The translations under genes were made by a program, and so were the position numbers. This document shows, one piece after another, positions 61,617 to 63,581 of a stretch of DNA of 64,000 bases (position 1 is the first letter of the stretch; every line of letters begins with the position of its first letter). The notes under the pieces are model-generated. The model saw nothing but the letters and a program-made list of their open reading frames with translations. It was not told where the DNA came from and did no database searches. This DNA comes from Escherichia coli (GTDB taxonomy: Bacteria > Pseudomonadota > Gammaproteobacteria > Enterobacterales > Enterobacteriaceae): assembly GCF_003334815.1 (NCBI RefSeq), contig NZ_QOWO01000008.1; one strand, written 5' to 3'.

Positions 61617-63581
61617 TCAGGCGGCGGTGTTCGCCATACGTTGTTCGCGGTTTATCGCCTGCAAGGCGGAGACATCAACAATCAGTGCCACGCTGCCGTC
61701 GCCAAGAATGGTCGCAGCAGAAATGCCGGGGACTTTGCGATAGTTACTTTCAAGGTTTTTAACCACAACCTGGTGTTGACCAATTAATTGATCCACCAGC
61801 AAGGCGTAGCGGCGACCGCCACTTTGTAAGATCACCACAATTCCCTGGGTGGCTTCGGTTTTCGCGCCCGCGACGTTGAACACTTTCCACAGTTCGACGA
61901 TGGGCAGATATTCACCCCGCACTTCCAGCACCCGCTCGCCGCCGGCCAGTGGATGGAGATCGGCTTCACGGGGTTGCAGTGATTCCATAACAGCATTCAG
62001 CGGCAGAATGAAAACTTCATCCGCAACGCGTACGGACATGCCGTCGAGGATGGCCAGCGTCAGCGGCAGTAAAATGCGGATCGTAGTGCCAGTACCCTGC
62101 TTCGACTGGATTTCGACATGACCGCCCATCTCCTGGATATTACGTTTAACGACGTCCATGCCGACGCCGCGCCCGGAGACGTCGGTGACCTGCTCTGCCG
62201 TGGAGAAGCCAGGTGCAAATATCAGCATCGCGACTTCGTCGTCGCTCATGTTTTCGCTGACAGTCAAACCTTGCGAGGCCGCTTTTGCCAGAATTCGCTC
62301 ACGGTTTAGCCCCGCCCCATCGTCGGTCACTTCAATGCAAATGTTGCCGCCCTGATGTTCGGCAGACAGAATTAAATTTCCGACGCTGTTTTTACCTGCG
62401 GCGAGCCGTTTTTCTGGCAGTTCAATACCGTGATCGAGGCTATTGCGTACCAGGTGGGTCAGCGGGTCGATAATGCGTTCTATCAGGCTTTTGTCGAGTT
62501 CAGTAGAACTGCCCACCAGCGTCAGTTCTACCTGCTTGCCGAGTTTTCCCGCCAGATCACGCACCAGCCGGGGATAGCGACTAAAAACATATTCCATCGG
62601 CATCATGCGAATCGACATCACTGATTCCTGCAAATCACGGGCGTTACGTTGTAACTGCCCCATGCTGGTTATCAAATCACCATGATTAACCGGGTCCAGT
62701 TCGCTGGAACGCTGGGCAAGCATGGACTGGGTGATAACCAGCTCGCCGACGAGGTTAATTAATTGATCAACCTTTTCTACCGCTACACGGATGCTGGTGG
62801 ATTCATTGCTGCGCGTCGTTTTTTCCCGCTCCACGCGGCCGGTTGGCGCTTGTTCGGCTGCCAGTTTAAGCACTGGTGGGGTGGATATTTTTGGCGAGAC
62901 TTCTACTGTTTCAAAGGTAATCTGATCGGCTTCAATCACAAAACAGAGTACCGCTGTGATGTCATCTTCGGCGATGTCGCCCGGTAATATTGCCGAGAGC
63001 GAATCCGCCCCTTTCACCACGTCAGTTAACGTTGTCAGATGTCCCAGTTCTTCTTCCAGCAGGTCGACTTCCCCGGCCTTCAGGCGCGAAAGGATAATTC
63101 GTCGCGGCGACTGACTGCGACTCTGCTCATCTTGCGGTTCACTTTTGGCAACCACACTTAATCGGGTCACTGCGGATGGCGTTTCGCCTTTCGCTTCTAA
63201 TGCCAGTTGACGCAAGGCCTGGCAGATATAATCGAAGCTGGCGGCATCCGGCTCTTGCGACTGTTTATAAGCGTCGAGCTGTTCTTGCATGATGTCCTTC
63301 GTTTCCAAAAACAGATTGATAATGTCGGTGTTGAGTTGCATCTCACCTCGTCTGGCTTCATCGAGCAGGTTTTCCATCAGATGCGTGGTTTCCTGCAAAA
63401 CGCTGAAGCCAAAAGTTCCTGCCCCTCCTTTGATCGAGTGGGCAGCCCGAAAGATGGCATTCAATTGTTCGGCATCTGGCGCTTCCGGCTGCAAAACCAG
63501 CAAATGCTGCTCCATGTCAGCCAACAGTTCGTCCGCTTCATCAAAAAATGTCTGATAAAAATCGCTTATATCCATGCTCAC
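61617..63581 (-). CDS. cheA: Chemotaxis histidine kinase CheA (long form, GTG start), 654 aa
   Basis: ORF track 61617..63635 over-extended; the CheA N-terminus [28 protein letters not shown] starts at GTG 63579-63581; phospho-accepting His in [10 protein letters not shown]; in-frame Met98 (ATG 63288-63290) is the CheA-short start. Confidence 0.93.

Follow-up and report, generated by a model that had tools for sequence, protein, structure and literature searches.

In Escherichia coli K-12, the chemotaxis gene cheA is translated from two in-frame starts, start(L) and start(S), which give rise to CheA-long (CheA-L, 654 aa) and CheA-short (CheA-S, 557 aa), and these tandem starts have been textbook biology since 1980–1991. 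The work behind them is reportedly that of Smith and Parkinson in 1980, Kofoid and Parkinson in 1991 and Sanatinia et al. in 1995; McNamara and Wolfe in 1997 are said, judging by their title as cited, to have dealt with co-expression of both forms in Enterobacteriaceae. We analyzed a stretch of 64,000 nucleotides (nt) from E. coli (RefSeq assembly GCF_003334815.1, contig NZ_QOWO01000008.1; this whole stretch is called the window), whose minus strand carries cheA between motB and cheW. We conclude, with a probability of about 0.95, that the gene in the window is E. coli cheA carrying both in-frame translation starts known from the literature, and that internal initiation at codon 98 yields CheA-short.

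According to the literature, two polypeptides are produced, and mutating codon 98 abolishes the short one (PMC7696710, PMC1447658, PMC3676780). The start of CheA-S is ATG-98, and strains carrying the exchange M98L have no CheA-S and keep the function of CheA-L; polar localization of CheZ is lost in CheA-M98L, and CheA-S is non-essential for chemotaxis (PMC7696710). The short form, which is missing residues 1–97 and with them the phosphorylation site (PMC8563088, PMC1447658), binds CheZ (PMC8563088) and localizes and stimulates it at chemoreceptor arrays (PMC1447658, PMC8563088, PMC7696710, PMC3676780). Both forms are present in E. coli and S. typhimurium (PMC3676780), the L:S ratio varies with growth (PMC1447658), and cheA(L)/cheA(S) serves as a stock example of nested isoforms (PMC12350097, PMC11005335).

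The identity of the gene was established from annotation, protein families and genome comparison. The coding sequence (CDS) annotated by RefSeq/PGAP maps to 63581–61617 on the minus strand, with the same GTG start and the same stop as our translation, and the protein matches the NCBIfam CheA equivalog NF007835 with 1344.8 bits against a cut-off of 793. RefSeq annotates motA, motB, cheA, cheW and tar in the neighborhood; in addition, equivalogs for MotB, CheA, CheW, Tar, Tap, CheR, CheB, CheY and CheZ all exceed their curated NCBIfam cut-offs and follow the known E. coli order, and cheZ lies in the same gene cluster as cheA. Over 2.5 kb spanning motB'-cheA-cheW, the window has 100% identity with several complete RefSeq E. 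coli genomes, e.g., that of the non-K-12 strain ATCC 8739, and this stretch is carried by 5378 of 5426 E. coli genomes.

The domain map of the protein shows what a start at codon 98 would remove. Pfam places Hpt (P1) at residues 8–100, the CheY-binding domain (P2) at 161–223, H-kinase_dim at 261–324, HATPase_c at 372–508 and the CheW-like domain at 514–640 (one was added to the printed values, as the query had begun at codon 2). Met98 lies downstream of His48, in the same frame and within the P1/Hpt domain; it is covered by solved P1 structures (E. coli 6S1K and 8C5V, further 1I5N and 2LP4), where it falls in the four-helix-bundle region, and the P1 structure 1TQG of T. maritima aligns over query residues 8–103. 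Given this position in P1, initiation at codon 98 removes nearly the whole phosphotransfer domain, including His48, whereas P2–P5 are kept according to the Pfam map. The preliminary description of the locus had taken Met98 for the known start of a CheA-short without His48, in agreement with the published ATG-98 and M98L data (PMC7696710) and with the reported absence of the first 97 residues (PMC8563088, PMC1447658).

Judged by sequence alone, the internal site is unexceptional, and the case for more than chance thus rests on comparative evidence and the literature. For the comparison, 80 cheA loci from Enterobacteriaceae, Erwiniaceae, Yersiniaceae, Pectobacteriaceae, Hafniaceae and Morganellaceae were fetched with six peptide patterns, one of which was ETKDIMQE. 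Codon 98 is ATG in all 81 sequences from these six families of Enterobacterales. Outside this group, the picture differs. A P1 query was searched against 1.84 billion representative proteins and the N-terminal P1 hits were aligned. Met occupies the column of Met98 in 11/11 hits with at least 75% identity, but in only one hit each of the groups with 50–60% identity (41 Leu, 2 Ile, 1 Met) and below 50% identity (27 Leu, 6 Ile, 1 Val, 1 Met). Non-enteric CheA proteins thus have Leu, Ile or Val in this column, which means that the P1 fold does not require Met98, and Met98 is, from this alignment, a lineage-specific replacement of an ancestral Leu. Such a Leu-to-Met replacement fits the published retention of CheA-L function upon the reverse exchange M98L.

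Several further sequences stand apart. In some non-enteric CheA proteins, whose P1 is 60–69% identical, the sequence is K-D-M-L, and Met directly precedes the Leu aligned with Met98 of E. coli; in one such locus (L083), with the context ccaaggacATGctg, AAGGA is just 1 nt from the ATG. The Met of K-D-M-L may be a further internal start or a chance hydrophobic substitution. In Logan ERR12051303, two adjacent genes over 2501–4566, abutting at 3385, take the place of a single cheA call, one piece comprising Hpt and CheY-binding domains (294 aa), the other the dimerization, HATPase and CheW domains (393 aa); a Met (its residue 96) is aligned with Met98 and has AGAGG upstream, and the gene is either frameshifted, a pseudogene or truly split. 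The top-scoring hits of the P1 query are giant proteins with tandem Hpt-like stretches (33 in a protein of 4858 aa, 15 in one of 1950 aa), and a hit of 249 aa equals the match of PDB entry 6FF6, ‘BRIC1’, to E. coli P1 in length, bit score and alignment coordinates.

Selection on the nucleotide sequence around codon 98 was assessed by means of the synonymous entropy per codon, normalized for each amino acid and averaged in windows of nine codons (459 windows). The minimum of the whole gene is found at codons 90–98 (rank 1/459), with −0.617 bits per codon compared with a mean of −0.008 and a standard deviation of 0.147, i.e., about 4 standard deviations below the mean. All nine lowest windows lie inside codons 84–100, and the next distinct constrained region is formed by codons 1–9, which is start(L). 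When residuals were permuted, a minimum this low was obtained with p of about 0.001, and among 20,000 random sets of nine codons none was as constrained as the nine codons upstream of ATG98. TTT91 and GAA93 are invariant, while CTG90, AAC89, AAA95 and ATT97 are nearly so. Within the species, 5369/5379 E. coli genomes (99.8%) have the identical sequence over the 61 nt surrounding start(S), compared with 2987/4946 (60%) and 4094/5381 (76%) for two control segments of cheA. From this conservation pattern, the internal start region is under purifying selection at the nucleotide level, and the constrained tract would be the translation-initiation region of start(S).

An alternative explanation for the conservation is that ATG98 is not used at all, Met98 being kept simply as a hydrophobic core position in P1 helix D, while any short species would come from proteolysis of CheA-long. 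Residue 98 is indeed situated in the four-helix-bundle region and within the Pfam Hpt match, the peptide around it is highly conserved as protein, and the Shine-Dalgarno (SD) sequence before it is of moderate strength. However, in hits of less than 60% identity the column holds 68 Leu, 8 Ile, 1 Val and 2 Met, which shows that Met is not demanded by the fold, and neither constraint on the protein alone nor a protease site predicts the gene's strongest synonymous constraint immediately before codon 98. Proteolysis is further contradicted by the published M98L strains, which lose CheA-S and keep the function of CheA-L (PMC7696710). We therefore regard disuse of ATG98 as extremely improbable. The constrained tract could in principle also carry signals at the DNA level, as would be expected if CheA-short were made from a separate, shorter transcript with a promoter inside cheA. 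No sigma-70-like promoter was found on either strand of 63200–64000 (0.6 in shuffled sequences) and no sigma-28-like site with up to 3 mismatches in 63291–63750, although the perfect consensus at 61006, which served as positive control, was recovered; a transcript of this kind is very improbable. An antisense open reading frame (ORF) at 63289–63555 on the plus strand was rejected as a cause of the constraint, as it is open in 18/80 loci, interrupted in 62/80, and keeps its ATG in 6.

No observation contradicts internal initiation at codon 98, but the evidence has its limits. The fetch pattern ETKDIMQE may have inflated amino acid conservation at residues 94–101. This bias cannot, on the other hand, create conservation at synonymous sites; the constraint reaches upstream of ETKDIMQE, and loci reading EAKDIMQQ were recovered as well. 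The match of AAGGA to the 3′ end of 16S rRNA is only moderate and its spacer is short (4 nt). Met81 reaches −6.5 kcal/mol, essentially without a spacer, compared with −5.4 kcal/mol for Met98, and several out-of-frame sites beat Met98, up to −11.8 kcal/mol for TTG 63412. Anti-SD pairing alone is therefore not discriminating and was discarded as a criterion for start(S). AAGGA is absent from most enterics, Lys95 being encoded by AAA in 76/80 loci, mostly followed by GAT, and in these AAA loci the predicted anti-SD pairing amounts to −3.3 kcal/mol compared with −5.4 in E. coli. Finally, the riboproteogenomic supplements of PMC11005335 contain no cheA entry, and a literature search for retapamulin start data on cheA returned nothing further.

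The strong out-of-frame pairing belongs to an SD-like sequence, AAAGGAGGGG (63422–63431, minus strand, codons 51–54), which precedes TTG 63412 and encodes the K-G-G that closely follows His48 in the HPt motif. As a meaningful signal it was rejected: GGA is found at codon 52 in only 5/80 loci, and the sequence looks incidental to the K-G-G motif.

An SD sequence upstream of codon 98 had been suggested as a feature to look for in the preliminary description. In E. coli one is present, AAGGA, formed by AAG of Lys95 and GA of Asp96, but it is not the conserved determinant across enterics: Lys95 is AAG in just 4/80 loci (E. coli, Cedecea neteri, Izhakiella and one metagenome-assembled genome of Erwinia). 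What is shared is base composition, for the A/U content at −25 to −1 of ATG98 is 0.60–0.76 compared with gene means of 0.36–0.57, which places this stretch in the top 1–5% of positions in most species, GC-rich ones included. Taken together, AAGGA, the synonymous constraint and the A/U-rich tract support a functional ribosome-binding region upstream of ATG98. The conserved determinant would be the A/U-rich tract CUG UUU UUG GAA ACN AAA GAU AUU AUG rather than an SD sequence, and this tract probably acts as an S1-type initiation region with weak dependence on SD pairing. The comparison also suggests that AAGGA of E. coli is a lineage-specific tuning of the short:long ratio.

These parts can be joined into a scenario in which initiation at codon 98 would have arisen once, by a Leu-to-Met replacement near the base of Enterobacterales, would be driven in most genera by the A/U-rich sequence (AAC CUG UUU UUG GAA ACN AAA GAU AUU AUG) almost independently of an SD sequence, and would later have been strengthened in E. 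coli by a change of AAA to AAG, now fixed in 99.8% of genomes. We put this forward tentatively, as a plausible history that is somewhat more likely to fail in one of its parts than to hold in full. If it is true, CheA-S should be more abundant relative to CheA-L in E. coli than in, e.g., Citrobacter or Enterobacter, and the scenario would refine a known system incrementally rather than establish a new one.

Regulation of start(S) by mRNA structure was considered as well. Two pairings come into question, a conserved hairpin with AAGGA and AUG in its loop (CUGUUUUUG, 63314–63306, with CAAGAACAG, 63287–63279) and a long-range interaction (TATAAGCG, 63570–63563, with CGCTTATA, 63273–63266). The 1991 mapping paper is reported to have proposed inverted repeats of this kind as regulators. 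The E. coli sequence does fold in silico into the hairpin, the stem of which is pairable in 95.3% of alignment cells, including a series of U-A, U-G and C-G at one pair. Its fold energy is, however, no better than that of shuffled sequences (z = 0.02), no pair has changes on both sides, i.e., covariation does not support it, and shuffled controls match both its pairing (287/500) and its covariation (228/500). RNAalifold likewise finds no consensus structure around start(S). The long-range pairing is attractive insofar as stretches shortly 3′ of each start complement each other perfectly over 8 nt, but it needs ATA at codon 5 (3/73 loci) and GCT at codon 104 (16/80) and is thus not conserved; moreover, 12 comparable inverted repeats lie within the same 500 nt. 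Control of start(S) by either structure is, accordingly, unlikely. Nor is the initiation region itself particularly open: the window from −25 to +15 of codon 98 is average in structure (mean z = 0.28), although the windows on either side rank with the least structured ones in codons 1–130.

Start(L), the start of CheA-long, lies at the junction with motB. Downstream of the GTG the sequence reads AGC ATG GAT ATA AGC GAT TTT, i.e., (M)SMDISDFYQ..., and the motB stop codon TGA (63588–63586) forms the last three bases of the SD sequence GAGGTGA of cheA. The sequence (A/G)AGGTGA is conserved, and the distance from the motB stop to codon 1 of cheA is 4 nt in 70/79 loci. As the stop lies inside the SD sequence and this short gap is kept, start(L) is probably coupled translationally to the termination of motB. 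The 79 loci compared at the junction are the window and 78 other species.

Our ORF list opened cheA further upstream, at a TTG that gives an ORF of 672 aa. It was rejected as CheA, as it overlaps motB and its extension is not conserved. The TTG has weak anti-SD pairing (−3.3 kcal/mol), and the in-frame extension upstream of codon 1 ranges from 0 to 115 codons across the 79 loci. In the 24 loci whose upstream starts were listed, TTG at −18 occurs in the E. coli window only, and several of them have no start codon anywhere in the extension. The C-terminus of MotB, ...SVPTSPPANPR*, is conserved across loci in its own frame. The preliminary description had already dismissed this ORF as an artefact and had started CheA-long at the GTG; both statements are borne out, the latter by the RefSeq start, by PDB numbering from MSMDISDF and by GTG-AGY-ATG in 74/80 loci, and all coordinates it gave are correct.

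A less distant competitor of the GTG is the ATG at codon 3, which would result in a CheA-long of 652 aa and shift the conventional numbering by two. Codons 1–3 (GTG-AGY-ATG) offer two potential starts to a single SD sequence. In Photorhabdus and Xenorhabdus, codon 1 is GTA and an in-frame stop codon lies 0–3 codons upstream; CheA must consequently start at the ATG of codon 3 there, as the sole start available. This ATG is invariant throughout the comparison set, and the NCBIfam CheA profile begins at its Met. The spacing from GAGGTGA, on the other hand, is 4 nt to the GTG and 10 nt to this ATG. Moreover, GTG-AG(C/T) is near-invariant in 74 loci, its sole variable site being the last base of codon 2, while the 4-nt spacer immediately 5′ of the GTG varies freely, which is the pattern of translated codons. 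RefSeq, the depositors of the E. coli and Salmonella CheA entries in PDB and the numbering used in the literature (His48, Met98) all count from the GTG. Kofoid and Parkinson in 1991 reportedly determined both N-termini of CheA by protein sequencing. Spacing, the variation at codons 1 and 2, annotation and numbering conventions together favor the GTG, and a true start at codon 3 in E. coli appears quite unlikely, although the ATG may be an alternative or back-up start. The coordinates of all features are compiled in Table 1.

Table 1. Features of cheA and its two translation starts in the window (minus-strand codons are given from their first to their last base).
Feature	Coordinates	Strand	Evidence
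cheA CDS, CheA-long, 654 aa, 71.4 kDa (calculated)	61617..63581	−	ORF/translation, RefSeq CDS and NF007835
SD sequence GAGGTGA of start(L)	63592-63586	−	anti-SD duplex of −7.2 kcal/mol
start(L), GTG as codon 1 of CheA-long	63581-63579	−	RefSeq; GTG in 74/80 Enterobacterales loci
ATG of codon 3, possible alternative or back-up start of the long form	63575-63573	−	invariant in 80/80 loci
His48 codon CAC, phospho-accepting His of P1/Hpt	63440-63438	−	translation; inside Pfam Hpt 8–100
Tract of suppressed synonymous variation, A/U-rich, codons 84–100	63282..63332	−	entropy windows and permutation
AAGGA, SD-like, 4 nt upstream of ATG98 (Lys95 AAG and Asp96 GA)	63299-63295	−	duplex of −5.4 kcal/mol with the 16S 3′ end
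start(S), ATG of codon 98, initiation codon of CheA-short	63290-63288	−	ATG in 81/81 sequences; literature (ATG-98, M98L)
CheA-short CDS, residues 98–654, 557 aa, 60.4 kDa (calculated)	61617..63290	−	shares the frame of CheA-long
cheA stop codon TGA	61619-61617	−	ORF translation; frame open for 654 codons
TTG from which the rejected 672-aa ORF opens	63635-63633	−	inside motB, in another frame
cheZ, phosphatase	54650..55324	−	NCBIfam CheZ equivalog NF008368, 365 bits (cut-off 257)

On this basis, expression of the gene can be pictured as follows. Ribosomes on the motA-motB-cheA-cheW mRNA would start at the GTG and produce CheA-long, the autokinase which carries His48. Other ribosomes would bind independently within the segment coding for P1/Hpt, at the A/U-rich tract and, in E. 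coli, at AAGGA, so that start(S) would represent an internal entry site of its own, and would initiate at codon 98 to produce CheA-short. The latter is devoid of P1 helices A–C and half of helix D; without His48 it cannot be phosphorylated, but since P2–P5 are kept, it still dimerizes and joins receptor arrays. According to the literature, the exposed remnant of P1 binds CheZ, which is thereby recruited and stimulated at the arrays.

Further observations concern the surroundings of cheA. The NF008368 match covers residues 10–224 of the listed cheZ ORF, the longest version of which is about 9–10 codons over-long at its 5′ end. Similarly, the tar ORF (59287–60969, minus strand), opened by TTG 60969, begins 7 codons ahead of the NCBIfam Tar profile match (residues 8–560), and the tap ORF (57640–59244, minus strand) is over-long by 1 codon according to its NCBIfam profile. 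These over-long tar, tap and cheZ ORFs are start artefacts of choosing the longest ORF, like that of cheA. The perfect sigma-28 consensus used as positive control above, TAAA-N15-GCCGATAA from 61006 on the minus strand, is located in the gap between cheW and tar and is presumably the promoter of the tar operon. It is overlapped by a match to the Rfam family C0465 on the opposite strand (60996–61073, 111.6 bits). Small RNA families reach the gathering threshold at 46698–47005 (minus strand; MicL), at 11357–11501 (plus) and 11361–11460 (minus), which are the antisense pair SraC/RyeA and SdsR/RyeB, and at 42720–42762 (plus; ES036). No tRNA genes were found within the 64,000 nt of the window.

For annotation, these results mean that cheA has to be called from the GTG and not from the longest ORF. 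They also mean that a second functional product, CheA-short, is hidden in a single annotated CDS, a proteoform which automated pipelines do not record. The role of CheA-short as a tether which localizes and stimulates CheZ at chemoreceptor arrays has been established for decades. What the present analysis adds is modest, namely the peak of synonymous constraint at codons 84–100 with its minimum at 90–98, the origin of Met98 from Leu, and the finding that the SD sequence of E. coli is not common to most enterics. These additions refine a known system without changing the picture, and could guide work on how the L:S ratio is set.

Compared with cheA of E. coli K-12, the locus in the window shows no difference of substance: gene, species, His48 and Met98 as well as the motB-cheA-cheW context are the same, and the feature described here is the one known from K-12. 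Salmonella and other Enterobacteriaceae share ATG98 and the A/U-rich tract upstream of it, which are common to all 80 loci, but most of these genera have AAA-GAT where E. coli has AAG-GAC, and with it, lacking AAGGA, the weaker pairing given above. A comparable arrangement is found in infB, which is named beside cheA in PMC12350097 and PMC11005335: IF2-alpha and IF2-beta are likewise made from one ORF with two in-frame starts, the internal one giving a proteoform that lacks the N-terminal part and has a role of its own. The proteins are unrelated, however, and in the case of cheA it is the phospho-accepting Hpt domain which is removed by the truncation, exposing a remnant that binds CheZ.

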